Assembly (NCBI GenBank): GCA_913046035.1 | Contig: CAJWSW010000006.1 | Span: 6,493 to 70,492, forward strand | Source of the DNA: an uncultured Alphaproteobacteria bacterium | Lineage (GTDB): Bacteria; Pseudomonadota; Alphaproteobacteria; MPNO01; UBA830 | Reading direction: 5' to 3' | Length of the DNA: 64,000 bases | In this document: positions 16,160 to 32,015 of the stretch, piece by piece | How the letters are laid out: every line of letters starts with the position of its first letter | Numbering within the stretch: position 1 is the first letter of the stretch | Made by a program: the position numbers and the translations under genes | Notes under the pieces: model-generated | The model's database searches: none | What the model saw: the letters and a program-made list of their open reading frames with translations, nothing else | What the model was told of the DNA's origin: nothing

Positions 16160-17767
16160 TTATGAGGGTGTTGTGGGCAGGCAAACGACGAAACGCGCGC
16201 CCGTCTTCTGACCGTCAACGCCTCTCAGGTTCTCAGCATGGATAGTGCCACCATGGGCTTCAATAATTTGGCGCGAAATACTGAGGCCGAGCCCGGAATG
16301 ACGTCCAAAACTCTCACTCTCAGGACGCTCCGAATAAAATCTCTCAAATATTGATTCCAAACTTTTATCAGGAATACCTGGACCACGATCTTCTATAGAA
16401 ATACTTAATTCCAGGCGGTTCCGCGCCATCACTATTGAGATCTCTTCCCCCGGCGGCGTGAATGAACGAGCATTACTGATCAAGTTTTGAAAAACTTGAA
16501 CCAGTCGCCCCTCTATACCACGGACGGTATAACCTGTCTGATCATCGCGCAAAACGAGACGAAGGCCCATGACCTCACCTATCTGGCCAGCCTCCGCGGG
16601 CTGTTGCACCTCCACCAGCGCGAGCAACAACTTTTCAAGATCGACTATTTCCATCTCCCCACGTGCAAGCTCTGCATCGAGTCGCGAAGCGTCCGAGATA
16701 TCACTGATCAAACGATCGAGACGTTTTACGTCATCCTGAATGATGTCCATCAACGCTGTTTGCTTTTCCGGATCCCGAACACGGGAAACTGTCTCAACCG
16801 CACTGCGAAGCGACGTAAGGGGATTTTTGATTTCATGAGCAACATCTGCAGCGAATCGCTCATTAGCCTCAATCCGTTGCCAGAGCGACTCAGTCATGTC
16901 GCGTAATGCCTCTGATAGATCTCCGATTTCGTCCTTCCGGCTAGAAAAGTTTGGAATTGCGCTTATCTCACCATGACCCGAGCGCACTCTGTCGGCTGCT
17001 GATGCAAGGCGCCGCACCGGACGGGCGATTGCCCCTGCAAGGTACAGAGAAAGAAGCACTGTAACGCCGAGAGCAATGCCGAATACCCCTAGGATATCAA
17101 AGCGGACATCACGGACTTTAGTGTCGATCTCCTCGGAGTCTGCAGTGACCAATATGGCGCCGAGCACCTGCCTAAATCTTTGAACGGGGACCGCGACCCC
17201 AAGTTTTATCCGACCGCTTGATAGTGACCAACGGTCGGCACTAGGTACTCCAGTAAGTGCTTCAGATAAAACTGGCAGTCTTGCAACGTCGAGCGGCGCC
17301 GACTCTGGGAACGCCGGCTCCTCGTTGCGTTGGGGAAGCAATGCCAGGAATGCATCATACACACGATAAAAGAAAGTCCCGCCGGACACTTTATCACCCG
17401 GAGTCGGCAACGGTTCAACCTGAACAGCGCCGCGATGACCCGCCAAGAATTGGCTGTCAGCGATTTCCGCTCCTCTCGCATCAAAAATGATTGTTCGCGT
17501 TCGCGTTGGCGCGGTCAGGCGACGAAGCATCAGCCGCGCCGCGCCGGGCCGCAAATACTGCGCGCCGTTTTCTTTTTGCGCGACTGCGCCCTGACCTAAG
17601 GCGCCGGCAAAAATCTCTGCCTGGGTTTCAAGAGCGTCGAGGTCTGCTTCAATCAACCCGTCGCGATATTCATCTAAATATAGAATTCCGATCACCAAAA
17701 TAGCGAGCGGAAAAACGTTTACGGTGAGAATACGCCGGGTAAGAGGAGAGAAAAGACGAAAAGTCAT
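16160..17767 (-). CDS. chvG: sensor histidine kinase ChvG/ExoS/BvrS family
   Basis: 535 aa with two N-terminal TM segments, HAMP, H-box HEIKNPLTSLRS and HATPase_c (GLGLSISRQIIEAHGG). Immediately downstream of chvI on the same strand. Confidence 0.85.
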   Translation of the reverse strand: MTFRLFSPLTRRILTVNVFPLAILVIGILYLDEYRDGLIEADLDALETQAEIFAGALGQGAVAQKENGAQYLRPGAARLMLRRLTAPTRTRTIIFDARGAEIADSQFLAGHRGAVQVEPLPTPGDKVSGGTFFYRVYDAFLALLPQRNEEPAFPESAPLDVARLPVLSEALTGVPSADRWSLSSGRIKLGVAVPVQRFRQVLGAILVTADSEEIDTKVRDVRFDILGVFGIALGVTVLLSLYLAGAIARPVRRLASAADRVRSGHGEISAIPNFSSRKDEIGDLSEALRDMTESLWQRIEANERFAADVAHEIKNPLTSLRSAVETVSRVRDPEKQTALMDIIQDDVKRLDRLISDISDASRLDAELARGEMEIVDLEKLLLALVEVQQPAEAGQIGEVMGLRLVLRDDQTGYTVRGIEGRLVQVFQNLISNARSFTPPGEEISIVMARNRLELSISIEDRGPGIPDKSLESIFERFYSERPESESFGRHSGLGLSISRQIIEAHGGTIHAENLRGVDGQKTGARFVVCLPTTPS

Positions 17768-17803
17768 TTGGGTAAATTATAGCAGCACCGAACTACACGA
17801 CCC

Positions 17804-18544
17804 TTACAATTCGCGAAATCGATATCCAATTCCATACAGAGTTTCAATTGCTCCGAAGTCAGGATCTGCTGTTCGGAACTTTTTGCGAAGACGCTTGATG
17901 TGGCTGTCAATAGTTCGATCGTCAACATAGATGGACTCACCATAGGCCGCATCCATAAGCTGCTCGCGCGATTTAACGTGGCCTGGATGCTGCGCAAGAA
18001 CTTTAAGGATTAGAAATTCCGTTACTGTTAGATCAACCCCTATTTTTTGCCACGTGCAGCTAAATCGGTCCAGATCCAACCGTAAGTCGCCACGAACGAT
18101 GGGCGGCTCAGAAGTTGTCACTTCGTGTTCTTTGAAATAGTTGCCGTGGCGACGAAGTAATGTCCGGATGCGTTCTATTAAAAGCCGCTGGGAAAAAGGC
18201 TTTTTGATATAATCATCCGCACCCATTCGCAATCCTAGAATTTCATCTACTTCATCTTCTTTAGACGTCAGAAAGATAACGGGCATTTTAGATTGCCGTC
18301 GCAGACGGCCGAGTAGTTCCATCCCATCCATGCGCGGCATTTTGATATCCAAGATTGCAAGATCCACGGGTCGAGCGGACAATCCACGAAGTGCAGAGTC
18401 GCCATCAGAATAAGTTCGCACTTCAAAACCTTCTGCTTCGAGTGTCATGGATACCGAGGTTAAAATGTTTCGATCATCGTCGACTAACGCGATCGACGCA
18501 GGATTCGATTGAGCGTTGGATTGGATAAGCGCGTTGGTCATCAT
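17804..18544 (-). CDS. chvI: OmpR-family response regulator ChvI/BvrR
   Basis: Receiver domain ([14 protein letters not shown]...[14 protein letters not shown]) plus OmpR winged-helix C-terminus ([18 protein letters not shown]). Track ORF is over-extended; likely start ATG 18544/18541. Confidence 0.9.
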
Positions 18545-18759
18545 TATCACATTAATACTCTGGGTTGGGCGTTTAGATAGAAAAGTTGCCACATTGCGTT
18601 TCTTTTGACGACACTCAGGTGTGAGAGATGCCTTATATGATCAGTTAAGTCTGAAACATACCGAGGCTTTCCGCCAAACATTTTGATTTTTAACGTATAC
18701 GTCTTAATTGCGGCCGAAATAGGGCATGAGCATTAAACTCCGAGCGAAGTCAGTTAAAC

Positions 18760-19521
18760 ATGAGTGGATCTCAATCGATGAAAAATGACACCAAAACCAA
18801 CGAGCCTGCCCCCGGGGCTCTGTCGCGCCGGCTTGTTCGCGCTTGTGATCGGGCTGTTTTATCGACTTCGTTAGTAAACACGGAATGGCCTTACGGCTCA
18901 CTGGTAATGACAGCATGCGACCATGGCGCTAAACCAATTCTGCTGATTTCGGATTTAGCAGAACACACCACAAACCTTGCGACTAATAATCGCGCGTCTC
19001 TTTTATTCGACGGAACAGTTGGCCTCGACAACCCTCTCACCGGTGCGCGTGTTTCGGTTTTGGGAACAATAGCAAGAACTGAAGATCCCTTCCTGAAAGC
19101 ACGCTACATGTCCCGTCACCCAGAAAGCGAGGTTTTCGCTAACTTTGGAGACTTCAATTTTTACGAAATGGCAGTGGAACGCGCTCACATCGTCGCTGGT
19201 TTCGGCCTGATTAATTGGGTAGAAAAAGCAGAGCTTATATTCGACACTTCCGGATTTGAAACACTAGCGGAAGCCGAAAACGATATCGTCAGCCATATGA
19301 ACGAAGACCATTCCGACGCAATCACCCTCTATGCAACTTCATTATGCAACTTGCCAGACGGCGACTGGAAAATGACCGGCGTTGACCCAGAAGGGTGTGA
19401 TCTTCGGCTTGGCGGCGAGGTTGCCCGGGTTGACTTTAATAGGCCCGTGACAGACGCAGAGACTGCGAGATCAGAACTTGTCAAATTGGTTAAAGCCGCC
19501 CGCAAACCAAACAACGAGTAG
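18760..19521 (+). CDS. pyridoxamine-5'-phosphate-oxidase-like FMN-binding family protein (HugZ/DUF2470-like)
   Basis: 253 aa with PNPOx-like split-barrel N-terminal region and a C-terminal region with the conserved MNEDH motif of DUF2470. Same position between chvI and pckA as in Rhizobiales-type loci. Confidence 0.55.
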   Translation: MSGSQSMKNDTKTNEPAPGALSRRLVRACDRAVLSTSLVNTEWPYGSLVMTACDHGAKPILLISDLAEHTTNLATNNRASLLFDGTVGLDNPLTGARVSVLGTIARTEDPFLKARYMSRHPESEVFANFGDFNFYEMAVERAHIVAGFGLINWVEKAELIFDTSGFETLAEAENDIVSHMNEDHSDAITLYATSLCNLPDGDWKMTGVDPEGCDLRLGGEVARVDFNRPVTDAETARSELVKLVKAARKPNNE

Positions 19522-19707
19522 ATGCTAGCCGTGGCAAAAAGTTGAAAAGCCGAAAGTCTCCACCAGTCTGATTCATTGGCGTTTGACTCCCGCTTTTCCG
19601 AGGGTATGTTGCAGGGGTCTAAAAATCAGAAATATCTGGGGAAATTCGTCCTACCTCGAGGGCAAGATAGAACCTCAGAATTTTTCGGTTATGCTCAGGA
19701 GGTAAAC

Positions 19708-21312
19708 GTGAAGCACACTGGACGTCCCAGCTCATTCGGCCTTGAGAACCATGGTCTGGATAACTTGGTCAGCGCGCACTGGAACTTGTCGATCCCGGCG
19801 CTGTACGAACATTCGCTGCGACGCGGTGAAAGCGAGCTAGCGGCAGGCGGCGGCCTTGTCGTGACCACAGGCGAATACACCGGTCGTTCTCCAAAGGATA
19901 AATATATCGTCGACGAACCGGAGAACAGCGGCAACATCTGGTGGGGTCCAGTGAACAATAAGATTTCCTCAGACAATTTTAATACAATGCGCAACCGAAT
20001 GCTGGCGTATCTGCAACATAAAGAGGTGTTCGTTCAGGACTGTTATGCCGGTGCAGATCCAGATTACCGCATTAAAGTTCGCGTCATCACTGAACAGGCT
20101 TGGCACAGCCTTTTTGCGCAGAATATGTTCATCAACCCGTCAGAAGATGAGCATGCTGATTTTGAGCCTGATTTCACAATCCTACACGCGCCAAACCTTC
20201 AGTCGGTGCCTAACATTGACGGAACAGGGTCAGAAGTGTTTGTGATGCTAAACTTTGCCGAAAAGTTGATCCTAGTAGGCGGATCGCATTACACTGGCGA
20301 AATCAAAAAAACAATTTTCTCAGTCCTCAATTACTTATTACCGGCAAAAAATGTGCTCCCTATGCACTGCTCGGCGAATATCGGTGAGAAAGGGGATACA
20401 GCTATTTTCTTTGGGCTTTCGGGCACCGGCAAAACAACACTATCTTCAGATCCAACAAGGATGCTCATCGGCGATGATGAACACGGTTGGTCCGATAATG
20501 GAGTCTTTAATTTTGAAGGTGGGTGCTACGCTAAGGCCATCAACCTCTCTCAAGAGGCGGAACCTGAAATTTATGCCGCATCGCTGCGCTTTGGAACGGT
20601 CCTTGAAAATGTAACGCTGGACCCATTAACTAAATTCCCAAACTTTGATGACGATTCGCTTACTGAAAATACCCGATCGTCTTACCCGCTAAACTACATT
20701 CCAGGGACTAGTGTCTCCGGGATGGGCGGTCAGCCAGAGAATATCGTTATGCTCACGGCTGATGCGTTTGGTGTGCTACCACCCATTAGCCAATTGACAG
20801 CGGATCAGGCTATGTATCACTTCCTATCCGGTTATACAGCGCGGCTAGCAGGCACCGAACGTGGCGTCGACACGCCGCAGGCGACCTTCTCCACCTGCTT
20901 TGGCGCGCCTTTTCTTCCACGGCACCCGACAGTTTACGCAAAACTTCTCGGCGAACGCATTGAAAAGAGCGGAGCCAAATGCTGGCTCGTCAATACAGGT
21001 TGGAGTGGTGGCGCTTTTGGGACCGGAGAGCGCATGAAGATTGCCCATACCCGAACGATGGTGCGCGCCGCGGTGGAGGGCAGACTTTCAGCTGTCGCGT
21101 TAGCGCCTGATCCAAATTTCGGTTTACTAATCCCTGAAAATGTCCCCGACATACCCAAGGAAGTTTTGAACCCAAAAGAAACCTGGGATGATAAGAGCGG
21201 TTATGACGCCACTGCCCGCGATCTCGCGCATCGATTTGAGAGCAACTTCAAACAGTTTGAGGATGCCGTCACAGAGGATGTCAAAGCGGCGGGAATTCGC
21301 GCTGCTGCCTGA
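19708..21312 (+). CDS. pckA: phosphoenolpyruvate carboxykinase (ATP)
   Basis: Kinase-1a GLSGTGKTTLS, PEPCK-ATP signatures. Track ORF starts at 19576, but AGGAGG (19697..19702) followed 5 nt later by GTG 19708 gives a 534-aa product matching normal PckA length. Confidence 0.9.
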   Translation: MKHTGRPSSFGLENHGLDNLVSAHWNLSIPALYEHSLRRGESELAAGGGLVVTTGEYTGRSPKDKYIVDEPENSGNIWWGPVNNKISSDNFNTMRNRMLAYLQHKEVFVQDCYAGADPDYRIKVRVITEQAWHSLFAQNMFINPSEDEHADFEPDFTILHAPNLQSVPNIDGTGSEVFVMLNFAEKLILVGGSHYTGEIKKTIFSVLNYLLPAKNVLPMHCSANIGEKGDTAIFFGLSGTGKTTLSSDPTRMLIGDDEHGWSDNGVFNFEGGCYAKAINLSQEAEPEIYAASLRFGTVLENVTLDPLTKFPNFDDDSLTENTRSSYPLNYIPGTSVSGMGGQPENIVMLTADAFGVLPPISQLTADQAMYHFLSGYTARLAGTERGVDTPQATFSTCFGAPFLPRHPTVYAKLLGERIEKSGAKCWLVNTGWSGGAFGTGERMKIAHTRTMVRAAVEGRLSAVALAPDPNFGLLIPENVPDIPKEVLNPKETWDDKSGYDATARDLAHRFESNFKQFEDAVTEDVKAAGIRAAA

Positions 21313-21508: not shown

Positions 21509-22129
21509 TTAGTGCACTAACCGGCGACAATTTTTGCGTTTCGCAGATGCATCGAGAGCGCAAAGCCGTTGTTCAATCCAAGAAATTCTATCCTCCATCG
21601 CAGCCTTTAAAAAAGGGCGATCCAGAGGGAGGCGCTGACGACGCTCTATTAAACCCTCACGAGCATTCATGTAAAACCTTTTTAGATCACTTATAGCAGC
21701 CGGAATATCGCTAGGTTCGGTCACATCAAGTAACCCGAATTTGATTGCGGCAGACGAGCGAGAGATTGGATCATCCCACTCGGGTAGTGGTAACAATATC
21801 AATTCCCGGAAAACTTGGGCGCCTTTTGGGGTTAAAGTATAAAAAAACGGGATTGAGCGGATCCAACTTTCAGTAGCGAGTATTGTGCCACTTGCGGCCG
21901 CCTTGCGAAGACCGGCAGCAATAACTTCCTGGGGTGGACGCCAACCACCACCGGTCAGGCACCAGACCGTATCAATTAATCGGGCCAGCGACGTCATGCG
22001 GCACGCTGTTGCACCATAAAGCGCGAGCTGAAGAGCAGCATCCGCATCAAGATGGCGAGGCGTTTTGCCCTCCTTTTTCGGTAAAACCGCAATTTCCGGG
22101 GTTTGGTTCAGTTCAGAAGAATGAGCCAT
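21509..22129 (-). CDS. hypothetical protein with putative winged-helix motif
   Basis: 206 aa from ATG 22129 (AGGAAA upstream). The ...SIPFFYTLTPKGAQVFRELI segment resembles the wing of PadR/MarR-type wHTH domains (Y.LT.KG). No other recognisable motif. Confidence 0.5.
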   Translation of the reverse strand: MAHSSELNQTPEIAVLPKKEGKTPRHLDADAALQLALYGATACRMTSLARLIDTVWCLTGGGWRPPQEVIAAGLRKAAASGTILATESWIRSIPFFYTLTPKGAQVFRELILLPLPEWDDPISRSSAAIKFGLLDVTEPSDIPAAISDLKRFYMNAREGLIERRQRLPLDRPFLKAAMEDRISWIEQRLCALDASAKRKNCRRLVH

Positions 22130-22191
22130 TGTTTTCCTGTTAGAGTGCACGTCTGTCTGGTTGTGGCATAGGTAAGTCTGAGCATTTCCCC

Positions 22192-22250
22192 GATAATTCT
22201 AAATGAGAATGATAATCATTACCAGCACTTTAATGAGTTCTTACTCATTA
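22192..22250. promoter_or_regulatory. Fur-box-like hexamer array plus a 20-bp perfect palindrome in the promoter region of the wHTH hypothetical gene
   Basis: GATAATtctaaatGAGAATGATAATCATTACc: the 19-mer GAGAATGATAATCATTACC matches the GATAATGATAATCATTATC Fur consensus at about 16 of 19. Followed by TAATGAGTTCTTACTCATTA (8-bp arms). Located 40-120 bp upstream of the minus-strand start at 22129 and downstream of fbpC. Confidence 0.35.
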
Positions 22251-22357: not shown

Positions 22358-23407
22358 CTATTTCAAAAAAACAAATGCTTGGTCCTGATCGATTTCGACT
22401 GGAATTCTGTCACCAAGGTCGAAAGCTGCAGCTTGAGGATACCTCACTTCCACATGTGTGTGGGGTTGCGGCCAATCGCCAATTCCGAGGCGAATAAGGC
22501 TGGAATTACCCGCATACTGTACGCCGCAGACTAGCAAGGAATTTGGTGATGAATCGTCTCCACTTTGGGTCACAATCTTGAATGCCTCTGGACGTAACAG
22601 AACCTGAGCCGCCGCACCTTCCGGAAGATCGGGGTTCCGGAACGCGCCGAGATCAGTCTTGACGATGTCCCCCTCAACAACGCCGTCAATTTGGTTTATA
22701 CGGCCGAAAAAGCTGGCGCTAAATACGTTTGACGGCGATCGGAATAACTCTTTAGGGGTGCCTACCTGAATAACTTTTCCCTCATTCATCAGCACAATCC
22801 GGCTAGCCATAGTGAGGGCCTCCTCGGGATCGTGTGTCACCATTACCGCGGTTACACCGAGTTCTTTTAGCATGCTGAGGGTTTCTTCGGCCATCTCTTC
22901 ACGCAGAGTGGTGTCGAGGCCAGAAAATGGCTCATCAAGCAGCAATAATTTTGGGCCAGGAGCGAGTGCCCTAGCCAAGGCAACGCGTTGCTGTTCTCCT
23001 CCTGACAACATATGGGGATATTTATCGGCATGTTTTTTGAGACGCATACGATCCAGCAACTCACTTACACGTCGTAAGTTTTGCTCTCGACTGAAAGCCA
23101 CCAATCCGTATGAGATGTTTTCAGAAACTGAGAGGTGAGGAAATAGTGCAAAATCTTGAAAAAGTAACCCGACATCTCGCTTATGGGGAGCTACGAGCTT
23201 ATTCGGTGAGGAAACCACTCTACCGCCAAGTGTGATTATCCCTTCGTTGGGACGATCAAGTCCCGCAACAAGCCGCAAGGTAGATGTTTTTCCGCAGCCT
23301 GACGGACCGAGGAGACAAAGCATCTCACCTGTTTGAACCTGGAATGATACATTATTAACTACAACGTTATCACCGAGGTGAAGCGACACCCCTTCCAAGC
23401 TCAACAT
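22358..23407 (-). CDS. fbpC: ABC transporter ATP-binding protein, FbpC/PotA-like, with C-terminal TOBE domain
   Basis: Walker A GPSGCGKT, signature [15 protein letters not shown], Walker B LLLLDEPFSGLD, C-terminal OB-fold region. The likely start is ATG 23407 (MLSLEGVSLHLGD...); the track entry extends to 23488. Confidence 0.8.
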   Translation of the reverse strand: MLSLEGVSLHLGDNVVVNNVSFQVQTGEMLCLLGPSGCGKTSTLRLVAGLDRPNEGIITLGGRVVSSPNKLVAPHKRDVGLLFQDFALFPHLSVSENISYGLVAFSREQNLRRVSELLDRMRLKKHADKYPHMLSGGEQQRVALARALAPGPKLLLLDEPFSGLDTTLREEMAEETLSMLKELGVTAVMVTHDPEEALTMASRIVLMNEGKVIQVGTPKELFRSPSNVFSASFFGRINQIDGVVEGDIVKTDLGAFRNPDLPEGAAAQVLLRPEAFKIVTQSGDDSSPNSLLVCGVQYAGNSSLIRLGIGDWPQPHTHVEVRYPQAAAFDLGDRIPVEIDQDQAFVFLK

Positions 23408-23655
23408 GTTTTTGGACAAGCAAGTGTTATCAAGGTCTTTGTCTTTAACACCCCGAGCCTGCTTCCTTTTATTAAAACTCATTCTCATTTAACCCCTGGT
23501 AAGGATCTGTGCAAGATGGAACTTGATATGATTTTAAGAAGGAAAAAACCGGCTCTTTAAGAGAAATCCGGTAAGACATCCAGAATCTCGCAGAACTTCA
23601 ACTAAATCCAGCTTTGAAATTTGACTTTGCAAGTCACTCGCATTATTAACTTCGG

Positions 23656-23670
23656 TGATTTTGCAAATCA
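23656..23670. promoter_or_regulatory. perfect palindrome TGATTTTGCAAATCA (TGA-N9-TCA), 27 bp upstream of the secreted-protein gene
   Basis: Arms TGATTT/AAATCA with a 3-nt spacer. Fits both a degenerate Fur half-site pair and the TGA-N9-TCA iron-responsive operator type. Lies in the divergent region between fbpC and the secreted-protein operon. Confidence 0.3.
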
Positions 23671-23696
23671 TTCGCACCTCGAGAAAGGAAAACCCC

Positions 23697-25091
23697 ATGA
23701 ATAAACGGTTAATCGCAAGCGCCTTTATAATAGTGGCGCCCGCTATTGCCACACCGGCCTCCGCCGGCGATGCGGTCTATGGAAAGTTCCCGGTTACTCT
23801 TAAAAGTTGGATGGGCAACGAAACGAATAGCGTTGCATACACAGGACAAATAGCGCGACAAGTTTTACATGACTCACTAAAAAAACTTGCCGGGAAAGGC
23901 AATGGAAAGCCTAACGCAGCGCTGCAAGCCGAGATGATGCTCTACTTCGAGGGCAAAGGAAAAAATCGCAAAATCCTAGCCCCGACGTCCAAGGGTCCAT
24001 TTGTTATAAAACAAAAAACAGTCGGAGAAATAAGCAATCCAAATCTCGCGGGAAAAACCTACAAGGGCACCGTATCCGGAATGCCAAACAATATGACTGG
24101 GCCGGAATTGATTAAATTTTGGATCGGGAAAGCAGCTAGCGCTAATAAAGGGGTAGACATGGCTAACGGATACAATTATCCGCAGCTCATATCAAAATTC
24201 ATATTAGGCGCAGTATTTTATCATCAGGCCGTCGACAATTATCTCGATGAAAAGATGACAGCTGGCAACAAACCTAACAACAAGCCCTACAAAAAGGGTA
24301 AGCATTATACCGGAAAAGAACACAGTTGGGACGAAGCCTTTGGATATTTTGGCTTCCCTGCTCATGGTTTAATGCTCTCGCCGTCACAACTTTATGACAT
24401 TGCCAAGCGCAAGCCGACCGCGGTCAGTATTGCGGATGCAAATAGCGATGGGAAGATTGATCTGTACAATGAGATGGTTTTTGGACCAGCATACTATGCT
24501 GCTGGCTCAGATAAATCGAAAAAGACAGCATATGCAAAGACGATCGGCAAAGCGTTCCTTGATGGGCGAAAATTGATCGCATCAGCGGATGGCAACGCGT
24601 TAAACAGCTCTCAGCTTGGCCAGATCGCCCAATATGCCAGGGTGATCGAAGAAAACTGGGAAAAAACACTAGCGGAAGCCACATTTAAATATGCTGGCTC
24701 CTGTTTCAAGGATTTGCAAGCTATCAAGGCGAATCCCTCTGATGCCAAAGTCCTTGCCAAATACGTTAAACATTGGGGAGAGCTAAAGGGCTTTTCGCTT
24801 GCCATGCAAACGGGCCGAAAGAACCTAGGAGATACCGCAACGCGGCTTAATCGACTTATCGGCTTCGGCCCCGTGATGCCTAATTCTAGCCAGGTAATAG
24901 ATATTGATTCTGGTGGGAACTATGTGAAAGACCAGGCGTCGGGTATTAATGAATACATGGGTCACATGCTCAAAGTGCAAAAGCTTATTGTCGACAAATA
25001 CGGCATAAAGGCCCGCAAAAATGATCAGCTTGCTGGTATGTCAGATATGCTAAAAAAACTCGGTAGCGGATCTGCAGCTGAAAACGACTAA
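23697..25091 (+). CDS. secreted hypothetical protein (Sec signal peptide; Lys/Asn/Gly-rich)
   Basis: MNKRLIASAFIIVAPAIATPASA signal peptide with an AXA-type cleavage site. 464 aa, no TM segments and no recognisable catalytic motif. RBS AAAGGA upstream. First gene of the plus-strand cluster with the hydroxylase, fbpA and fbpB. Confidence 0.6.
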   Translation: MNKRLIASAFIIVAPAIATPASAGDAVYGKFPVTLKSWMGNETNSVAYTGQIARQVLHDSLKKLAGKGNGKPNAALQAEMMLYFEGKGKNRKILAPTSKGPFVIKQKTVGEISNPNLAGKTYKGTVSGMPNNMTGPELIKFWIGKAASANKGVDMANGYNYPQLISKFILGAVFYHQAVDNYLDEKMTAGNKPNNKPYKKGKHYTGKEHSWDEAFGYFGFPAHGLMLSPSQLYDIAKRKPTAVSIADANSDGKIDLYNEMVFGPAYYAAGSDKSKKTAYAKTIGKAFLDGRKLIASADGNALNSSQLGQIAQYARVIEENWEKTLAEATFKYAGSCFKDLQAIKANPSDAKVLAKYVKHWGELKGFSLAMQTGRKNLGDTATRLNRLIGFGPVMPNSSQVIDIDSGGNYVKDQASGINEYMGHMLKVQKLIVDKYGIKARKNDQLAGMSDMLKKLGSGSAAEND

Positions 25092-25159
25092 AGCCATTAG
25101 AATGCGGCGGTCGCCTAGCTAAACGGGCGGCCGCCGTCCCATTTTTAGGGAATTTACTA

Positions 25160-26179
25160 TTGCCGATCCTTGACTGGATAAATGGAGAATACATTCCCCA
25201 TCTTTTAGATGGCTTTCTGAACCCACAGAAAAGGGTTTCCCTTCTCTATCTGTCTATTGCAGCAGCGTTAGCGATTATATGGAGCGTTTACGTCTCGCGT
25301 GGGAGCGTTCGGAAGGGTTTTTTAATTGCCCGAGACAAGCTTTTTAGCCAACGTGTCTGGTTCTCACATTCGGCGCGAGGTGACTACAAGTTACTGCTTG
25401 CAAACCACGCGCTACTTTTATTGATTGCACCCCTGCTGCTATCGAAACTAACGGCAACAACAGCCCTTTTTTTCTTTTTCATAGACATTTTCCCGTCAGG
25501 GGCAGCTGTTCTCTCATCCACGTCTCCACTTTTAGTTGCAATAACCTACACAATCTTTCTTTTTCTATTGGATGACTTTTCACGCTTTGCAACGCACTTT
25601 GCACTCCATCGCGTCCCCGCACTCTGGGCGTTTCACAAAATTCACCATAGCGCAGAGACACTGAGCCCGCTTACGGTTTATCGAACCCATCCGCTGGAGG
25701 CGGTCATATTCTCATTCCGCGCCATAGTTGTGCAGTCTTCAGCGATTTCAATATTTGTTTTTCTTTTTGGTTCTTCTGTTGATCTGGTTTCGATCTACGG
25801 GGTTAATGCGATCTTATTTCTATTCAACGTCACTGGGTCTAACCTTCGTCACTCCCACATCCCAATAGGATATGGACGGCTAGCTGAGCATTTTTTGATC
25901 TCTCCGGCACAACACCAGATCCATCATTCTCTTGATCCAAACCATTATGACCGAAACTTTGGCGCTGCACTTGCCATCTGGGATTGGATAGCCGGTAGTT
26001 TGTGCAAATCTCGGACAGATATGGTGCTAAAATTCGGGCTCACCGATAGAGAAAACTTGCAAAGCCAAAAACTTCTGCACTTCTACTTTTCTCCGTTCCG
26101 GGAATTATTTGATAGGGGTCGGAACGACCCGTTTTATCGCAATCGAAACCATAGGAATTTGACAAAAAATGCGGTCTAG
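25160..26179 (+). CDS. fatty acid hydroxylase / sterol desaturase superfamily membrane protein
   Basis: 339 aa, multi-TM, histidine boxes HFALH, HKIHHS and HQIHHS typical of the membrane diiron FA-hydroxylase superfamily. Confidence 0.7.
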   Translation: MPILDWINGEYIPHLLDGFLNPQKRVSLLYLSIAAALAIIWSVYVSRGSVRKGFLIARDKLFSQRVWFSHSARGDYKLLLANHALLLLIAPLLLSKLTATTALFFFFIDIFPSGAAVLSSTSPLLVAITYTIFLFLLDDFSRFATHFALHRVPALWAFHKIHHSAETLSPLTVYRTHPLEAVIFSFRAIVVQSSAISIFVFLFGSSVDLVSIYGVNAILFLFNVTGSNLRHSHIPIGYGRLAEHFLISPAQHQIHHSLDPNHYDRNFGAALAIWDWIAGSLCKSRTDMVLKFGLTDRENLQSQKLLHFYFSPFRELFDRGRNDPFYRNRNHRNLTKNAV

Positions 26180-27197
26180 AATGATTTTTGCAGCGCTCGC
26201 GCTGATAATGGTCCTGCAAACTGGCGTAGCTTCAATTACCTCTGCACGTGCCGCAGAGCTGAACGTCTATTCCCACCGACAACCGTTTCTGATCAACCCT
26301 TTTCTAAAGGCGTTCGAAGAGAAGACCGGCACTAAGGTCAATGTCGTCTTTGCGTCTAAGGGGCTTGTTCAGCGGCTACTGGCAGAGGGACAGAGAAGCC
26401 CTGCAGATGTAGTCCTTACAGTCGATATCGGCAGGCTGTACGCGTATGCAGATAAGAACCTTTTTGCAAAGGTTACATCACCAAAGCTCTCCCAAAACAT
26501 CCCCGCTCATTTACGCGATGTGGATAACCGCTGGTTCGGCCTGTCAAAGCGTGCCCGGGTCGTCGCGATATCCAGAGACCGAGTCAAACCATCAGAGGTC
26601 CAAAAAATCGAAGATCTCGCTGACCCGAAATGGAAAGGCCGGGTTTGCAGTCGCCCGGGCAGCCATGTCTATAACCGCGCACTGCTCGCATCAATAATCG
26701 CGGCCCATGGCAAAGAGACCGCGGAAGAATGGGCACGAGGATTGGTAGCAAACATGGCACGACGTCCTCAAGGAAACGATCGCGCACAGGTCAAAGCAAT
26801 ATTCGAAGGCGTATGCGATGTCGCTATAATTAACAGTTACTATTACGGGAAACTTAAGACCTCTAAGGTGCCGGCCCAGCGCAAATGGGCAGAGGCCATA
26901 CAGATTGTCTTCACAAATCAGAATGACAGGGGCAATCACGTTAATATTTCGGGCGGCGGCGTTGCTGTCCACTCTAAGAATAAAGCAAGAGCGGTGAAGT
27001 TATTGGAGTTTTTGACCGAGAAAACAGCGCAGGATCTGTACGGACGGATCAATTACGAATTCCCGGTAAATCCTATGGTGGAGGCGGGCCCAGAAGTGAA
27101 ATCTTGGGGTACTTTTAAAGAAGACCAGCAACCTATAAGTCGTATTGCCACATTGATTCCCGTAGCACAGCGGGTTATCGATCGTGTTGGATGGTAA
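26169..27197 (+). CDS. fbpA: Fe(3+)-type ABC transporter substrate-binding protein (FbpA/AfuA family)
   Basis: 342 aa with signal peptide, and a family-1 SBP fold with a tyrosine cluster (NSYYYGK) as in ferric-binding proteins. Overlaps the downstream permease gene. Confidence 0.75.
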   Translation: MRSRMIFAALALIMVLQTGVASITSARAAELNVYSHRQPFLINPFLKAFEEKTGTKVNVVFASKGLVQRLLAEGQRSPADVVLTVDIGRLYAYADKNLFAKVTSPKLSQNIPAHLRDVDNRWFGLSKRARVVAISRDRVKPSEVQKIEDLADPKWKGRVCSRPGSHVYNRALLASIIAAHGKETAEEWARGLVANMARRPQGNDRAQVKAIFEGVCDVAIINSYYYGKLKTSKVPAQRKWAEAIQIVFTNQNDRGNHVNISGGGVAVHSKNKARAVKLLEFLTEKTAQDLYGRINYEFPVNPMVEAGPEVKSWGTFKEDQQPISRIATLIPVAQRVIDRVGW

Positions 27198-28864
27198 AAA
27201 CATTTTCTTTTCTATTTAAAAGCAAGAACGGAGATCCGCCGAGCGTCTGGTCGATAGCCACGCTAACGGCGGGCCTAATTCTTATTGGTCCGTTTTTCGC
27301 GCTTTTCGTTACTGCGGCGGGCGAAAGCGGGGGTTTGTGGTCGCACTTGATGCAAACCGTATTTCCTCGTTATGTAGGAAACACGCTCGCCCTCATGGTC
27401 GGTGTAGGCGCCATCAGTCTGTTCTTTGGCATCACAACAGCCTGGGTCGTTGCGCGTTTTCGTTTTCCCGGAGACTGGGCACTCGAGTGGATGCTGTTGC
27501 TACCGGCAACGGTTCCTGCATATATCATCGCATACACCTACACTGATCTCTTAGAATACGCAGGACCGGTTCAAGGCCTGTTGCGCGAAATTTTTGGTTG
27601 GCAATCAGCCAGAGATTATTGGTTCCCGGAAATTCGTTCACTAGGTGGCGCGATGCTCGTAATGGCTTCGGTGCTTTATCCTTATATATACCTTCTTGCG
27701 CGAACGGCATTTCGCCTAACGCCGGCGTCATATTTTGAGGTCGCACAACTTCACAACCGGAATTTTACATTAACTGCCGACATCGCACTCGCCCGGCCAG
27801 CAATAGTCGCTGGCCTTGCCCTTGTTCTTATGGAAGTCATTTCAGATTTTGGCACGGTCGACTATTTTGCGGTAGAGACACTCACTCTGGGAATTTTTAA
27901 CGTCTGGCTCGGGATGAACAACCTGATCGCCGCTGCGCAAATTGCGGGCATCGCGTTCATTTTCATCATTGGGCTTCTCTATATAGAGAGAACAGCTCGA
28001 TCTCGGCAACGCTTCACGGACACCACCCAGCGCAACAAAGAAATCGTACCCAAAAGAGTGTCCCGTGGATGGGGCGCAGTTTGTATTCTTATATGTCTGA
28101 CGCCGATTCTTCTTGGATTTGGAGTTCCGGTCGGAGTGCTACTTAATTTCATTTTGCAGGGACTTGCAATATCTGACCCAGGCGCTCTGACAAGCAGCGC
28201 GATCAATTCGGTATTAGTATCCCTAGCGGCAGCAGTTTGCGTGGTGACGCTAGCGGCAGCGATGGTTCTAACGGTGTCATACAAGAAACATCCTTTTCTG
28301 AACCTGCTTACCGCAGTGTCCGCTACCGGATATGCATTTCCGGGCGTAGTATTGGCCATCGGCGTGGTTTCATTCTCCGGCGCGCTTGACGGATTGATTG
28401 CTAATCTTGCAACTGAGGTTTTAGGTGTACCCTCAGACGGCGTCCTAATAGGAAGCGTCGCTCTGCTTGTCCTCGCGTACGTAACCCGCTTTCAGGCAAT
28501 TGGATATGGCGCGATGTCAGCCGGCGTCGAACGGCTCTCTCCAAATGTGATGAATGCCAGCTTCGTCCTTGGCCGAGGGTTCTCCAGAACCATGGGCTCT
28601 CTCGCGCCGCGTCTCCTTCGTAGTTCAATGATGGCCGCAGGGCTTCTTGTTTTTGTAGATGTTATGAAAGAGCTACCGATGACACTTCTCCTCCGACCTT
28701 TTAATTTTGATACACTCTCGACATATGTCTACCAGTTCGCAAAGGATGAATTATTAGAAGAGGCCGCTTTAGCAGCTCTAGCGATAGTTGCAGCCGGATT
28801 AGGACCGGTCATCTTAATGAACGCATCTCAAAAAAAACGTAGTCGCTCAAAATCGTTTGAATAA
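27191..28864 (+). CDS. fbpB: ABC transporter permease, FbpB-like (two fused MetI-type transmembrane domains)
   Basis: 557 aa, 12 predicted TM helices, two EAA-like loops (duplicated permease domain) as in FbpB/AfuB. Confidence 0.8.
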   Translation: MVKTFSFLFKSKNGDPPSVWSIATLTAGLILIGPFFALFVTAAGESGGLWSHLMQTVFPRYVGNTLALMVGVGAISLFFGITTAWVVARFRFPGDWALEWMLLLPATVPAYIIAYTYTDLLEYAGPVQGLLREIFGWQSARDYWFPEIRSLGGAMLVMASVLYPYIYLLARTAFRLTPASYFEVAQLHNRNFTLTADIALARPAIVAGLALVLMEVISDFGTVDYFAVETLTLGIFNVWLGMNNLIAAAQIAGIAFIFIIGLLYIERTARSRQRFTDTTQRNKEIVPKRVSRGWGAVCILICLTPILLGFGVPVGVLLNFILQGLAISDPGALTSSAINSVLVSLAAAVCVVTLAAAMVLTVSYKKHPFLNLLTAVSATGYAFPGVVLAIGVVSFSGALDGLIANLATEVLGVPSDGVLIGSVALLVLAYVTRFQAIGYGAMSAGVERLSPNVMNASFVLGRGFSRTMGSLAPRLLRSSMMAAGLLVFVDVMKELPMTLLLRPFNFDTLSTYVYQFAKDELLEEAALAALAIVAAGLGPVILMNASQKKRSRSKSFE

Positions 28865-28967: not shown

Positions 28968-31900
28968 TTAGTGCGCCTCGTCCCAGTTGAGACCAGTACC
29001 GGTGTCCACCACCAATGGTAATTCCAGATCGGCAGCACCCTCCATTTTTTTTGTTACGATCGCAGTGGTCTCGTCGACTTCTCCCTCTGGCACCTCGAAA
29101 ATTAACTCGTCATGAACTTGGAGCAGCATTCGAGCGCCAAGGCCCAGTTCTTTCAAGGTTTCCGGTATCCCAATCATCGCGCGCTTGATGATATCTGCCG
29201 CCGCGCCTTGCAGGGGAGCATTTATGGCGGCGCGCTCCGAAAAATTTCGTCGCGCAGGGTTTTTGTCATTGATTCCGGGAGTATGACACTTCCGGCCGAA
29301 GATTGTCTGGACGAAACCGTGTTCTCGCGCGAAGGTTTTCGTCGTTTCCATGTAGTCTCTAATACCCGGAAATTTCTTAAAGTAATTGTCGATATACTGT
29401 TTTGCCTCTCCCTGGGGAATAGATAACTGACGGGCTAAGCCGAAAGGACTTATCCCATATATGATGCCAAAATTGATCGCTTTGGCACGACTTCTTACCG
29501 AGGGCTCCATATTTTCTATGGGAATTCCAAATACCTCACTTGCAGTCATTGCGTGTATATCTTTTCCGTCCCGAAACGCTTCTCGCAGAGCCTCAATACC
29601 CGCAACATGGGCCAGCAAGCGCAATTCGATTTGCGAATAGTCAGCTGAGAGCAACACATGACCTTTTTCTGGCACGAATGCTTGCCGTATCTTTCTACCT
29701 TCCTCTGTTCGGATTGGGATATTCTGAAGATTAGGATCTGTCGATGAAAGCCGTCCCGTCGATGCTATGGCCTGCGCATATGAAGTATGAATGCGTTTTG
29801 TCGCAGGATTGATCTGCTTAATGAGCGCATCGGTGTAAGTGCTCCGTAATTTGGAAAGCTGACGCCAATCAAGAACGCGGCGTGGAAGATCCAAACCCTC
29901 CGCGGCCAGCCCCTCAAGAACATCAGCGCCAGTACCGTAGGCACCGGTTTTTGTCTTCTTACCGCCTTGTATTCCCATTTCATCGAATAACACTTCGCCT
30001 AGCTGCTTGGGTGAACCAATATTGAATTCGTGACCCGCTAGTTTGTATATGTCCTCGGCTATATCGGCGGTGCGTTTTTCAAAATCACCAGACAATTCTT
30101 TTAGGAAGGTTGCATCCACAATTATGCCCGCCCGCTCCATATCTGATAGGACGGGCACTAAACGGCGCTCCATCGTCTCATACACAGAAGTCATGCGTTC
30201 TTCAGAAATCCGCGGTTTCAGCTGACGGTAGAGGCGGCCAGTGACCTCCGCGTCCTCAGCTGCGTAATCTAACGCTTTATCAAGCGGCACATGATCGAAA
30301 CTTACTTGGTTCTTGCCAGTGCCGGCCACCTCAGAAAATTTAATATTGGTATGACCCAGGTGCAGTGCCGCTAGTTCATCCAATCCATGGCCATGCAGTC
30401 CGCCTTCAAGCACGTAAGAAAGCAACATAGTATCGTCTATAGGCCCAACCTCTACGCCATAGCGCGCCATAACCTGCATATCATATTTAATGTTGTGGCC
30501 AACCTTCAAAATGCCAGGGTCTTCTAATAGGGGTTTCAACATTTCGATCACACGGGTACGCGCGAGCTGCTTCGGAAGCTCCGGCGAAACATTACTTCTT
30601 ATCGCTCCCAGATCGAGCTCATCATTTCCTTGATTACCCGCAGAGATATGTGCGACAGGCACATAGCAGGCACGGCCACCCTGAACCGAGAGTGACAAAC
30701 CCACTAGGTCTGCTTGCATGGCATCAAGCGAATTCGTCTCTGTATCGAATGCGAACACACCTGCTAATTGAATTTCGTCGATCCAACCTTGCAGAGCGTC
30801 CTCCTCTTGCACAAGCTCGTATGCTCCTTCGCCAGGCGCGGTTACTGCGTCTGGGTTAGAGTTTTCCGCTTCAACGCCGAATTCGGACAGTGCTCTCGAT
30901 AAGGCGGACTTAAACCCCTGTTTTTCAAGCCATGGTATCAGAACCTCGGGATCGGGGCGTTTTTTCTGAAACTGAGCGATGTCCCCTTTGACGGGAACAT
31001 CAGCTCTTAAAGTCACTAATTCGCGAGAGACACGGGCGATACCCTGCTCCTCGTAAAGCAGCTCAGCATAACTCGTGTTAACCTTCGAATAAAACCTGTA
31101 ATCGATAATCTGTTGCGCTATCTCGTATCCGCTTGCGGCCAGCTCATTCAGCGCGGCGGCGTTGGTTGTAGGTTTTCCCGATTTCTTATCCTTTGGTACT
31201 GGGAGGTTAAGTTCGTCTATCAAAACCTCTTTTAACTGCTTTGGCGAACCAATTCCGAACTCTCGGCCCGCGATTTCGTAGATACGTTTTTGGCATGTCT
31301 CTGCCTTTAGGACAGCGTCCGCTTTAACGGCGTCGGTGTTCTGAACGGCCTCTAGAATCTTTTCAAGATCACCGTATTCGCGCACCAGTGCGGCAGCTGG
31401 TGCCTCGCCAATACCTTTTATGCCAGGTACGTTATCAGTCGAATCACCAAGCAAAGCCTGAACATCGACTACATTTTCAGGGCCAACACCAAATTTTTCC
31501 ACCACTTCTTCGGGGCCGATAAACCGGTTCTTCATCGGATCCATCATACGAACGCGCGGCCCCACAAGCTGCATCAAGTCCTTATCTGATGACACGATGG
31601 TAACCTCATATCCCTGCTCAACAGCGAGTTTTGCATAGGTAGCGATAAGGTCATCCGCTTCAAAACCCTCCATTTCTAAGCAGGGCAGCGAATATGCCCG
31701 GGTGGCCTCGCGTATAAGTTCGAACTGTGGCACTAACTCATCCGGCGGTGGCGGTCGGTTAGCTTTGTAGTCGGGATAGATCTCAGTCCGGAACGTCTTG
31801 CGCGCAGTATCAAAGATTACCGCAAGAAAGCTCGCACCGGAATCTTCTACCAGCTTGGTGAGCATATTGGTAAAGCCGAAAACCGCATTGACCGGCGTAC

Positions 31901-32015
31901 CGTCTGGTCGTGTCATCGGCGGCAGAGCGTGAAACGCCCTGAAGATATACGCAGACCCGTCTACTAAATAGACGTGATTGCACCCCGCATCGGCTTCCTG
32001 TTCCTTGACCATCAA
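28968..32015 (-). CDS. polA: DNA polymerase I
   Basis: 1015 aa with 5'-3' exonuclease, 3'-5' exonuclease and polymerase domains (motifs DYSQIELR, YGISPFGLA, QVHDELIFE). Confidence 0.95.
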   Translation of the reverse strand: MMVKEQEADAGCNHVYLVDGSAYIFRAFHALPPMTRPDGTPVNAVFGFTNMLTKLVEDSGASFLAVIFDTARKTFRTEIYPDYKANRPPPPDELVPQFELIREATRAYSLPCLEMEGFEADDLIATYAKLAVEQGYEVTIVSSDKDLMQLVGPRVRMMDPMKNRFIGPEEVVEKFGVGPENVVDVQALLGDSTDNVPGIKGIGEAPAAALVREYGDLEKILEAVQNTDAVKADAVLKAETCQKRIYEIAGREFGIGSPKQLKEVLIDELNLPVPKDKKSGKPTTNAAALNELAASGYEIAQQIIDYRFYSKVNTSYAELLYEEQGIARVSRELVTLRADVPVKGDIAQFQKKRPDPEVLIPWLEKQGFKSALSRALSEFGVEAENSNPDAVTAPGEGAYELVQEEDALQGWIDEIQLAGVFAFDTETNSLDAMQADLVGLSLSVQGGRACYVPVAHISAGNQGNDELDLGAIRSNVSPELPKQLARTRVIEMLKPLLEDPGILKVGHNIKYDMQVMARYGVEVGPIDDTMLLSYVLEGGLHGHGLDELAALHLGHTNIKFSEVAGTGKNQVSFDHVPLDKALDYAAEDAEVTGRLYRQLKPRISEERMTSVYETMERRLVPVLSDMERAGIIVDATFLKELSGDFEKRTADIAEDIYKLAGHEFNIGSPKQLGEVLFDEMGIQGGKKTKTGAYGTGADVLEGLAAEGLDLPRRVLDWRQLSKLRSTYTDALIKQINPATKRIHTSYAQAIASTGRLSSTDPNLQNIPIRTEEGRKIRQAFVPEKGHVLLSADYSQIELRLLAHVAGIEALREAFRDGKDIHAMTASEVFGIPIENMEPSVRSRAKAINFGIIYGISPFGLARQLSIPQGEAKQYIDNYFKKFPGIRDYMETTKTFAREHGFVQTIFGRKCHTPGINDKNPARRNFSERAAINAPLQGAAADIIKRAMIGIPETLKELGLGARMLLQVHDELIFEVPEGEVDETTAIVTKKMEGAADLELPLVVDTGTGLNWDEAH

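Follow-up and report, generated by a model that had tools for sequence, protein, structure and literature searches.

A predicted iron-regulated FbpABC-type importer operon with conserved DUF4856 and fatty-acid-hydroxylase-family genes in Alphaproteobacteria

The DNA considered here is a 64,000-nt stretch of contig CAJWSW010000006.1 from an uncultured alphaproteobacterium (the window, by which we mean this whole stretch). Between its housekeeping genes pckA (19576-21312) and polA (28968-32015) lies a transporter locus of the FbpABC type whose operon starts with two unexpected genes, one for a secreted protein of the DUF4856 family and one for a polytopic membrane protein of the FA_hydroxylase family (hereafter FAH). 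What are these two proteins doing at the head of such an operon? The answer that we favour, with moderate confidence, is that the locus encodes an iron-starvation-inducible FbpABC-type ferric importer working with two conserved accessory proteins. A functional link between the DUF4856 and FAH genes and the importer is well supported by comparative sequence evidence, namely conserved gene order, frequent fusion of FAH to the substrate-binding protein (SBP) and shared predicted operators; the roles we propose for the two accessory proteins are predictions. The transporter core is ordinary, and it is the accessory pair and the FAH::FbpA architecture that look undescribed.

The gene layout, taken from an open reading frame (ORF) listing together with Pfam and NCBIfam family scans, is as follows.

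22358-23488, minus strand: FbpC-like ATP-binding cassette (ABC) ATPase with a C-terminal TOBE-like domain, divergent from the operon (Pfam, NCBIfam)
23489-23696, no strand: intergenic region of 208 bp between the ATPase and DUF4856 genes
23628-23642, no strand: candidate operator box 1, TGCAAGTCACTCGCA, overlapping the palindrome TGACTTTGCAAGTCA at 23622-23636
23662-23676, no strand: candidate operator box 2, TGCAAATCATTCGCA, overlapping the palindrome TGATTTTGCAAATCA and ending 20 nt before the ATG
23697-25091, plus strand: secreted DUF4856 protein of 464 aa (PF16148) with a Sec signal peptide
25104-25147, plus strand: terminator-like hairpin followed by CCCATTTTTA, between the DUF4856 and FAH genes
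25160-26179, plus strand: FAH polytopic membrane protein of 339 aa (PF04116), with a TTG start
26169-27197, plus strand: FbpA-type SBP of 342 aa with its own signal peptide, overlapping the FAH gene by 11 bp
27191-28864, plus strand: FbpB-like double-module ABC permease of 557 aa, overlapping the SBP gene by 7 bp

All five genes of the set given in the preliminary description, including the fused permease and the divergent ATPase, are present. We place the start of the DUF4856 gene at the ATG at 23697, which lies inside a mechanical ORF spanning 23655-25091 and is preceded by GAAAGGA.

The likely substrate of the transporter is indicated by its SBP. The best match in the PDB is Mannheimia haemolytica FbpA (1Q35; E 6e-91, 308 bits, over residues 29-340), further matches include Bordetella FbpA (1Y9U), Synechocystis FutA1 (2PT1), a Trichodesmium SBP (6G7N), Campylobacter cFbpA (1Y4T) and FutA2 (2VOZ), and each of the top eight, with E values from 6e-91 to 7e-50, is an SBP of the FbpA/FutA/cFbpA type that binds iron. 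In 1Q35 we take Fe3+ to be co-ordinated by Tyr142, Tyr198 and Tyr199 and the carbonate to be held by Arg10 and Arg101; counted along the alignment, the window protein has the identical residue at each of these positions, the corresponding motifs being HVYNR (166-170), NSYYYGK (222-228), SHRQP (35-39) and KRARV (127-131). The earlier assignment to the Fe3+ type, based on the NSYYYGK tyrosine cluster, is thus upheld with every metal and carbonate ligand kept, and the SBP is, by its sequence, an FbpA of the three-tyrosine/carbonate class that is predicted to bind ferric iron. In Pfam it matches SBP_bac_1/6/8/11, and phosphonate and thiamine SBP models stay at or below 50 bits, where the thiamine subfamily model demands about 93 and the others more than 300. 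Because of the FbpA/FutA matches in the PDB and these low model scores, a grouping with non-iron family-1 SBPs, which would have counted against an iron transporter, does not apply; the protein groups with solved ferric-binding proteins instead.

The remaining components complete the picture of an FbpABC-like transporter that had been drawn before. The ATPase matches PF00005 ABC_tran (E 8.5e-35) and NCBIfam models of the PotA/FbpC/CysA class. The permease has NCBIfam permease matches in its N-terminal half, its hydropathy profile reaches the threshold in 11 peaks, which would allow 12 transmembrane (TM) segments, and its orthologue in one related locus (L006) carries a weak BPD_transp_1 match. 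An SBP, a double-module permease and a TOBE-type ATPase are therefore encoded together, the TOBE_2 match being marginal (E 7e-4, 20.0 bits, cut-off 21). The likeness to the FbpABC/FutABC importers (1Q35, 1Y9U, 2PT1, 2VOZ, 1Y4T) spans the SBP (E 6e-91 to 4e-74, with the three Tyr and two Arg kept), the double-module permease, the TOBE-type ATPase and control by the Fur family, this last being predicted here from sequence. The described systems have a free periplasmic FbpA without accessory genes, whereas here DUF4856 and FAH genes precede fbpA, and most relatives have FbpA as the C-terminal portion of the FAH protein itself.

How firmly are the accessory genes tied to this transporter? When one genome for each GTDB species was scanned with a pattern, at least 562 stretches proved to encode a close DUF4856 relative, and synteny was analyzed on the best 80 of these 562. 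The nearest relatives of the window protein come from the metagenome-assembled genomes (MAGs) UBA7314 (90% identity) and UBA830 (84%). Most listed carrier genomes are marine Rhodospirillales-like and Hyphomicrobiaceae MAGs, and cultured carriers include Nisaea denitrificans DSM 18348, Terasakiella sp. A23, Neptuniibacter caesariensis MED92, Rhodobacteraceae KLH11 and Marinobacterium arenosum. The full order DUF4856-FAH-SBP-permease is found in 47 of the 80 loci, and another 14 have DUF4856-FAH-SBP with the permease either not found or lost to a contig end. DUF4856-FAH stands alone in 11 loci and runs into a contig end in 2; a single locus has DUF4856 and SBP only, 2 have none of the partner genes adjacent, and 3 are too short to tell. 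Of the 77 loci whose sequence extends far enough downstream, 74 have FAH directly 3' of DUF4856. Far from being unlinked in relatives, which would have spoken against a common system, the secreted and hydroxylase genes thus keep their company. The ATPase gene is divergent and 5' of the operon in about 19 loci, closes the operon at its 3' end in at least six and lies within it in L006, and the pckA and polA neighborhood of the window is kept in two relatives (L001 and L002).

FAH and SBP are read in one frame, without a stop codon, in 49 of the 61 loci that have both, giving a product of 660-680 aa. Such fusions, which gene callers also predict, occur in Nisaea denitrificans DSM 18348 and Terasakiella sp. 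A23 among others, and the 670-aa product of L006 carries Pfam FA_hydroxylase (125-272) and SBP domains (368-645) in a single protein. The fused proteins retain an AxA-like site and, before ELNIYSHRQ, a hydrophobic, signal-peptide-like segment, which would form one more TM helix and place FbpA outside. The split form with overlapping genes, seen in the window and in L011-L017, L021, L022, L081 and L001/L002, is the rarer one. DUF4856 proteins of the alphaproteobacterial type (59-60% identity) also occur in marine Gammaproteobacteria: in Marinobacterium arenosum (L009) FAH follows DUF4856, and in Neptuniibacter caesariensis MED92 (L089) there is no FAH and an Fbp-like ABC system lies nearby on the opposite strand. 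These occurrences suggest lateral spread of the module.

The first of the accessory proteins had been thought to contain no recognisable domain, which proves incorrect: the 464-aa protein is a member of DUF4856 (PF16148; E 2e-12, 47 bits where 22.3 are required, the match covering only profile positions 130-199 of 358), one of the families against which a profile search had been recommended. Imelysin was another, and there the protein has no Pfam match. Its N-terminus, MNKRLIASAFIIVAPAIATPASA followed by GD, is a Sec signal peptide (residues 1-23). A set of 5.8 billion proteins contains 2215 homologues, and the best 120 of the 2215 all carry the PF16148 annotation, with full-length identities of 59-99%; proteins of this operon form are also present in Tara Oceans data. 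In a family alignment of 37 sequences, which included canonical full-length DUF4856 proteins of Bacteroidota, Poribacteria and Chlorobi (e.g. P0280), the sequences can be aligned over their full length with 17 invariant and 29 nearly invariant columns. The motifs shared across the family are SVSYxGQxxR, EHxWDEAFGYFG (208-219), a DxNxDGxID...E loop (247-259), GR (291), Y332, KHWxExKGF (358-366) and Q371. The invariant residues, which include R54, K167, Y182, H209, D212, E213, R291, Y332, H359 and E362, are polar and of the metal-ligand type (H, E, D, Y, R, K), and the DxNxDG loop resembles a Ca-binding loop; EF-hand proteins, aligned over this loop, were the only sub-threshold profile matches in the PDB.

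An AlphaFold2 model built with 71 sequences is confident (pLDDT 91, pTM 0.89) and all-alpha except for one beta-hairpin, with the signal peptide and the last nine residues disordered. Although predicted to be disordered, this tail (residues 456-464; 25064-25091) ends in an END that is invariant in all 71 alphaproteobacterial sequences, a pattern suggesting that it may be a short docking motif for a partner protein. Distant members of the family have a lipobox cysteine that is absent from the alphaproteobacterial ones, so the latter are predicted to be soluble in the periplasm. Distant members may also be fused to cadherin or fasciclin domains, which indicate a surface location only. We rejected an imelysin/EfeO identity for the protein, since alignment of profiles by hhalign against the imelysin of a related locus (L004) gave a probability of 0.1% in addition to the missing Pfam match.

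Where else does this family occur? In Xanthovirga aplysinae a canonical DUF4856 gene lies directly 3' of a TonB-dependent receptor gene, and one 6.4-Mb genome has the order imelysin, di-haem oxidoreductase (DHOR), small ORF, TonB-dependent receptor, DUF4856. The family is therefore tied to iron-type uptake in two envelope contexts, next to TonB-dependent receptors and next to an ABC importer. Clusters of the Bacteroidota type (TonB-dependent receptor and DUF4856 lipoprotein, with or without imelysin/Peptidase_M75/IrpA-like and DHOR genes) share with the alphaproteobacterial loci the family itself, with its EHxWDEAFGYFG, DxNxDG...E and KHWxExKGF motifs, and the placing of DUF4856 beside iron-uptake machinery, some alphaproteobacterial loci having imelysin-bfd-bfr neighbors. 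They differ in that the alphaproteobacterial proteins have no lipobox, share about 60% identity between orders, carry the invariant END tail and are partnered with an inner-membrane ABC system and FAH rather than with an outer-membrane receptor. EfeUOB, FtrABCD/P19 and FetMP each pair a periplasmic accessory protein under iron regulation with a protein that handles iron in the inner membrane. The resemblance to these systems is one of logic only: we detected no homology, the DUF4856 protein is not imelysin/EfeO-like, and FAH is unrelated to FTR1-type permeases. The literature searched contained no paper mentioning DUF4856 or PF16148.

The second accessory protein was correctly recognised from the outset as a polytopic member of the fatty-acid-hydroxylase/sterol-desaturase superfamily with three His boxes. 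It matches PF04116 FA_hydroxylase with 76 bits (cut-off 31), and its boxes are H146xxxH150, H159xxHH163 and H252xxHH256. Among 62 homologues of 42-93% identity, H150, H159, H162, H163, H177, H231, H252, H255, H256 and H262 are invariant and H146 and H233 nearly so; K24, R25, Y30, S69, S71, D75 and N82 are invariant in the N-terminal part, as are many residues besides His in the predicted cytoplasmic loops. The AlphaFold2 model (pLDDT 88) consists of helices and contains hydrophobic segments. To judge from the modeled helices, the hydropathy and the distribution of charges, the His boxes and the C-terminal 110 residues, rich in K and R (15 K+R in residues 226-339), probably lie in the cytoplasm. 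A sequence search of the PDB gave no match, Foldseek returned a weak match of the model to Scs7p (4ZR0; E 7.4), and the sole NCBIfam match, to the OlsE model NF052566 (36.6 bits, E 3e-9), falls far below the cut-off of 475; by these comparisons the protein belongs to no characterised subfamily. It has in common with the superfamily (Scs7p 4ZR0, OlsE) the HX3H, HX2HH and HX2HH boxes, the additional invariant His and a polytopic helical build. It is set apart by an extra N-terminal helix and TM segment with invariant motifs of their own, by predicted iron-regulon control and by its fusion in relatives to a periplasmic metal-binding protein. The literature searched describes no hydroxylase-family partner of FbpA, and likewise neither the secreted nor the hydroxylase component as part of any Fbp/Afu/Fut system, in keeping with what had been claimed.

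Is the operon controlled by iron? The perfect palindrome reported 27 bp upstream of the first gene, TGATTTTGCAAATCA (23656-23670, with 6-bp arms and a 3-bp spacer), is present, 26 nt before the ATG, but is shifted by 6 bp relative to what is probably the core of the operator; a second palindrome, TGACTTTGCAAGTCA, lies upstream of it. Both fit TGA-N9-TCA, which is the RirA-box consensus and to which the Iron-Rhodo-box is similar (PMC1698941), and which served as our test for RirA, Iron-Rhodo and Rrf2 sites; the bare pattern occurs 14 times in the window against 15.5 expected, which is chance level. Using the operator motif definitions of the same source, in which the Fur-alpha box is similar to the Mur MRS (PMC1698941), we generalised the Fur-alpha-type 15-mer to TG[AC]nAATnATTn[TG]CA, since TGAnAAT and TGCrAAT half-sites mix freely in orthologous boxes; all operator statistics are counts of mismatches to consensus. 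Box 2 fits this 15-mer with 0 mismatches and box 1 with 2. The 64 kb hold three sites with at most one mismatch, namely box 2 and two mutually overlapping sites inside a Fur box (22204-22224) that is discussed below. A 17-mer, TTTGCAAnTCAnTCGCA, has exactly two copies in the window, here, 34 bp apart, and both copies and both operator boxes are conserved in the closest relative (L011); a 14-base stretch identical to that of box 2 lies upstream of the orthologue in L036.

Among 77 orthologous upstream regions, the Fur-alpha 15-mer with at most one mismatch is present in 47 (0.7% of control windows), the canonical Fur 19-mer with at most four mismatches in 35 (0.2% of random 250-bp windows) and the Irr ICE box with at most two mismatches in 8 (0.07% of controls), the last taking the place of the Fur-type box in Hyphomicrobiaceae, often as tandem arrays, and Rhodobacteraceae KLH11 has an Iron-Rhodo-like box upstream, TGACTAAAACAATCA. 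Because the 15-mer fits the window as well as these 47 promoters, the operator core is probably TGCAAAT-C-ATTCGCA, a candidate Fur-type site, and its 6-bp offset from the palindrome fits the hexamer-array nature of Fur sites. We considered the palindromes as RirA IRO boxes and think this less likely, the pattern fitting at chance frequency and the offset 15-mer accounting better for both the window and its orthologues. Control of the operon by the Fur family or by Irr, depending on lineage, is well supported at the level of predicted sites.

Recurrent neighbors in the 80 loci are bacterioferritin (9 loci), fur-family (6), Rrf2 (5) and imelysin (5) genes, and in one genome bfd-bfr-imelysin stands directly 5' of the DUF4856 operon. 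Together with the comparative operators, these bfr, bfd, fur, Rrf2 and imelysin neighbors support the iron-responsive uptake system that had been proposed from gene neighborhood. The fur-family gene is directly upstream and divergent in L044 (6360-6863) and L063 (6183-6599) and nearby in the four other loci. The Rrf2-family gene is directly upstream of the operon in L003/L025, its five loci being distinct from those with a fur-family gene. A family of unannotated proteins of about 190 aa is encoded near the operon in 12 of the 80 loci (L029:1351-1926, L035:3678-4259 and ten others); in L004/L035 it lies just upstream of bfd-bfr-imelysin-DUF4856, and the L004 copy has no Pfam match.

The DUF4856 gene is separated from the rest of the operon by the hairpin at 25104-25147, which begins 13 bases past the stop codon and has 13 pairs (10 of them G-C) followed by the T-run CCCATTTTTA. 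A GC-rich hairpin directly follows the DUF4856 stop codon in most of 68 related loci, with unrelated sequences. This recurrence suggests that the hairpin may serve attenuation or transcript stabilisation, DUF4856 being expressed above the membrane components; SBP genes in ABC operons are commonly expressed in this way. Among the intergenic regions of L011-L090 the T-run is often present in AT-rich genomes and absent in GC-rich ones. In three loci, from two Defluviicoccus MAGs and one unclassified alphaproteobacterial MAG (L033:5088-5709, L078 at about 8417-8798 and L077 at about 8420-8616), the spacer between DUF4856 and FAH is expanded to 195-620 bp, extremely GC-rich and highly structured (minimum free energy down to -396 kcal/mol), and may consist of inserted repeat elements.

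From these elements we propose the following mechanism. When iron is low, the repressor would leave both operator boxes. Attenuation of read-through by the hairpin that follows its gene would lead to an excess of the DUF4856 protein, which would act as a periplasmic capture or hand-off protein for iron or an iron complex, possibly stabilised by Ca2+, in the role that its lipoprotein relatives would have beside TonB-dependent receptors. It would hand Fe3+ to FbpA, which would be held at the inner membrane by the FAH protein, covalently in the fused forms and, in the split form of the window, through translational coupling and a presumed association. FbpB and FbpC would then import the iron. The FAH domain itself may be a functional di-iron protein with its metal site facing the cytoplasm beside the permease; with low confidence, we suggest that it acts on the iron being imported, or on its carrier, through redox or oxygenase chemistry, rather than being a lipid enzyme with no part in uptake. 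A bolder form of this proposal, which we put forward as a tentative and rather unlikely possibility, would make FAH::FbpA a new class of ferric uptake component, in which a periplasmic transferrin-like domain is covalently coupled to a cytoplasm-facing di-iron domain active in the transport cycle (for instance by accepting imported Fe3+ where it leaves the permease and reducing it, or by breaking down a lipophilic iron carrier through oxidation). DUF4856 would then be a new family capturing iron or iron complexes for ABC importers in Alphaproteobacteria and TonB-dependent receptors in Bacteroidota, and the two together would constitute a widespread undescribed marine pathway.

Several observations weigh against an importer with two dedicated accessory proteins. 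The 11 loci that have the DUF4856-FAH pair without an adjacent transporter, and the similar arrangement in Rhodobacteraceae KLH11, imply that the role of the pair does not strictly depend on a cis-encoded FbpA, and the locus with DUF4856 and SBP does without FAH. The hairpin could be a full terminator, uncoupling DUF4856 from the downstream genes. Direct chemistry by FAH on periplasmic iron is unlikely because its catalytic site should face the cytoplasm, and no recurrent electron-donor gene for FAH was found near the 80 loci, Bfd being encoded in some of the bfr-linked ones. DUF4856 resembles no solved structure in the comparisons made: phmmer and two profiles found no solved relative in the PDB (nothing with E <0.1), Foldseek of the model against the PDB gave a best E of 0.22 and nothing significant, and the 50 Foldseek matches listed include no imelysin. 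Finally, the Fur-alpha motif resembles the Mn-responsive Mur box.

In our main rival explanation two separate modules merely share iron control, DUF4856 and FAH remodeling the envelope or its lipids (with FAH hydroxylating a membrane lipid as OlsE does with ornithine lipid) and so fitting the cell surface to iron starvation while FbpABC imports iron independently. In its favor, there are transporter-less pairs (the 11 loci, KLH11 and Marinobacterium), the intact di-iron site is what one would look for in an enzyme, OlsE is the only NCBIfam match of FAH (E 3e-9), and the hairpin sets the DUF4856 gene apart. Yet the 49 in-frame FAH::FbpA fusions argue for a physical coupling beyond co-regulation, the OlsE score is far under its cut-off (36.6 against 475), the induction of an iron-dependent lipid enzyme in iron starvation would be uneconomical, and DUF4856 relatives are found beside TonB-dependent receptors and imelysin, not lipid genes. 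We regard this explanation as unlikely. The fusions could also be explained if FAH were a membrane anchor or scaffold that tethers FbpA by the permease and raises its local concentration, its chemistry being irrelevant to uptake. The fusion architecture does put FbpA on the outer face of the inner membrane, and tethered SBPs, whether fused or lipid-anchored, are an established design in other ABC systems. A pure anchor would hardly need all of the di-iron His and many cytoplasmic-loop residues to be invariant across 62 homologues, nor would it be expected to persist beside DUF4856 without a fused or adjacent SBP, and in the clade of the window the proteins are separate and the SBP has a cleavable-looking signal peptide of its own. 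A role confined to anchoring therefore seems to us distinctly improbable.

Two further explanations concern the signal and the origin of the operon. It might respond to Mn or to Fe-S/oxidative status, the boxes being Mur (MRS) or RirA/IscR (TGA-N9-TCA, Rrf2) sites. The Fur-alpha motif is described as similar to MRS (PMC1698941), both window palindromes fit TGA-N9-TCA, and an Rrf2 gene adjoins the operon in 5 loci. That pattern is no more frequent than chance (14 against 15.5), orthologous operons carry canonical Fur or Irr ICE boxes, the SBP ligands are those of Fe3+ proteins, and RirA and IscR themselves sense iron status via Fe-S clusters, so that we give this explanation very little credence. 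Recent horizontal insertion of two AT-richer genes before an ordinary fbp operon would account for the composition noted in the preliminary description, and the difference is real but modest: GC is 0.462 in the DUF4856 gene and 0.458 in the FAH gene against a window mean of 0.505 +/- 0.023, within the lowest 1-2% of 1.4-kb windows. GC3 differs little from normal, and amino acid composition explains much of the shift, DUF4856 being rich in Lys and Asn and FAH in Phe, Ile and Leu. The same gene order recurs in dozens of loci across alphaproteobacterial lineages (among them Rhodospirillales, Hyphomicrobiaceae and Sneathiellales MAGs), with the pckA/polA surroundings kept in L001/L002, and this conserved synteny led us to reject horizontal transfer as the cause of the low GC; we consider a recent insertion the most improbable of the explanations weighed here.

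Two features on the far side of the ATPase gene bear on the extent of the system.

21509-22150, minus strand: ORF213, a conserved ORF of 213 aa (ORF listing), adjoining the ATPase gene on its 3' side
22205-22223, no strand: canonical Fur box, GAGAATGATAATCATTACC, 55 bp 5' of ORF213 and 135 bp past the ATPase stop codon

Fur-like boxes had been described as following the ATPase gene. There is indeed a canonical box at this position, the only one in the 64 kb, with 2 mismatches to the 19-bp consensus where 0.02 such matches are expected, but it belongs to ORF213 and not to a transporter gene. Orthologues of ORF213 in the two closest relatives, L011 and L012 (67-69% identity), occupy the same position, each with a Fur box upstream, and we discarded the box as a regulator of the ATPase gene, since it comes after the end of that gene and it is before ORF213 that it is conserved. 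ORF213 has no Pfam or NCBIfam match and is best called a neighbor of the transporter. In our own reading its stretch FYTLTPKGAQVF resembles the wing of a winged-helix regulator, so that, with its Fur box, ORF213 might be an iron-controlled regulator. Farther out, between a ChvI/ChvG-like two-component pair (16160-18592, minus strand) and pckA, the window encodes a protein with a PNPOx-like/CREG beta-barrel and DUF2470 (18760-19521, plus strand), whose gene also adjoins pckA in L001 and L002; this we take to be the domain pair of HugZ-type haem-utilisation proteins.

Across large parts of the ocean iron is what holds back the growth of microbes, and Fbp/Fut-type transporters are a main inorganic-iron route for many marine bacteria. 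The occurrence of this operon form in at least 562 species-level genomes means that the three components of the textbook system are often accompanied by two additional proteins that are strongly conserved, one of which, DUF4856, thereby gains its first functional context. The fusion of a membrane di-iron oxygenase-family domain to a ferric-binding protein is an unexpected architecture, and the cultured Nisaea and Terasakiella offer a handle on what happens to Fe3+ at the inner membrane, be it hand-over, release or processing. Iron uptake in the bacteria that carry this operon probably has a step that has not yet been described.

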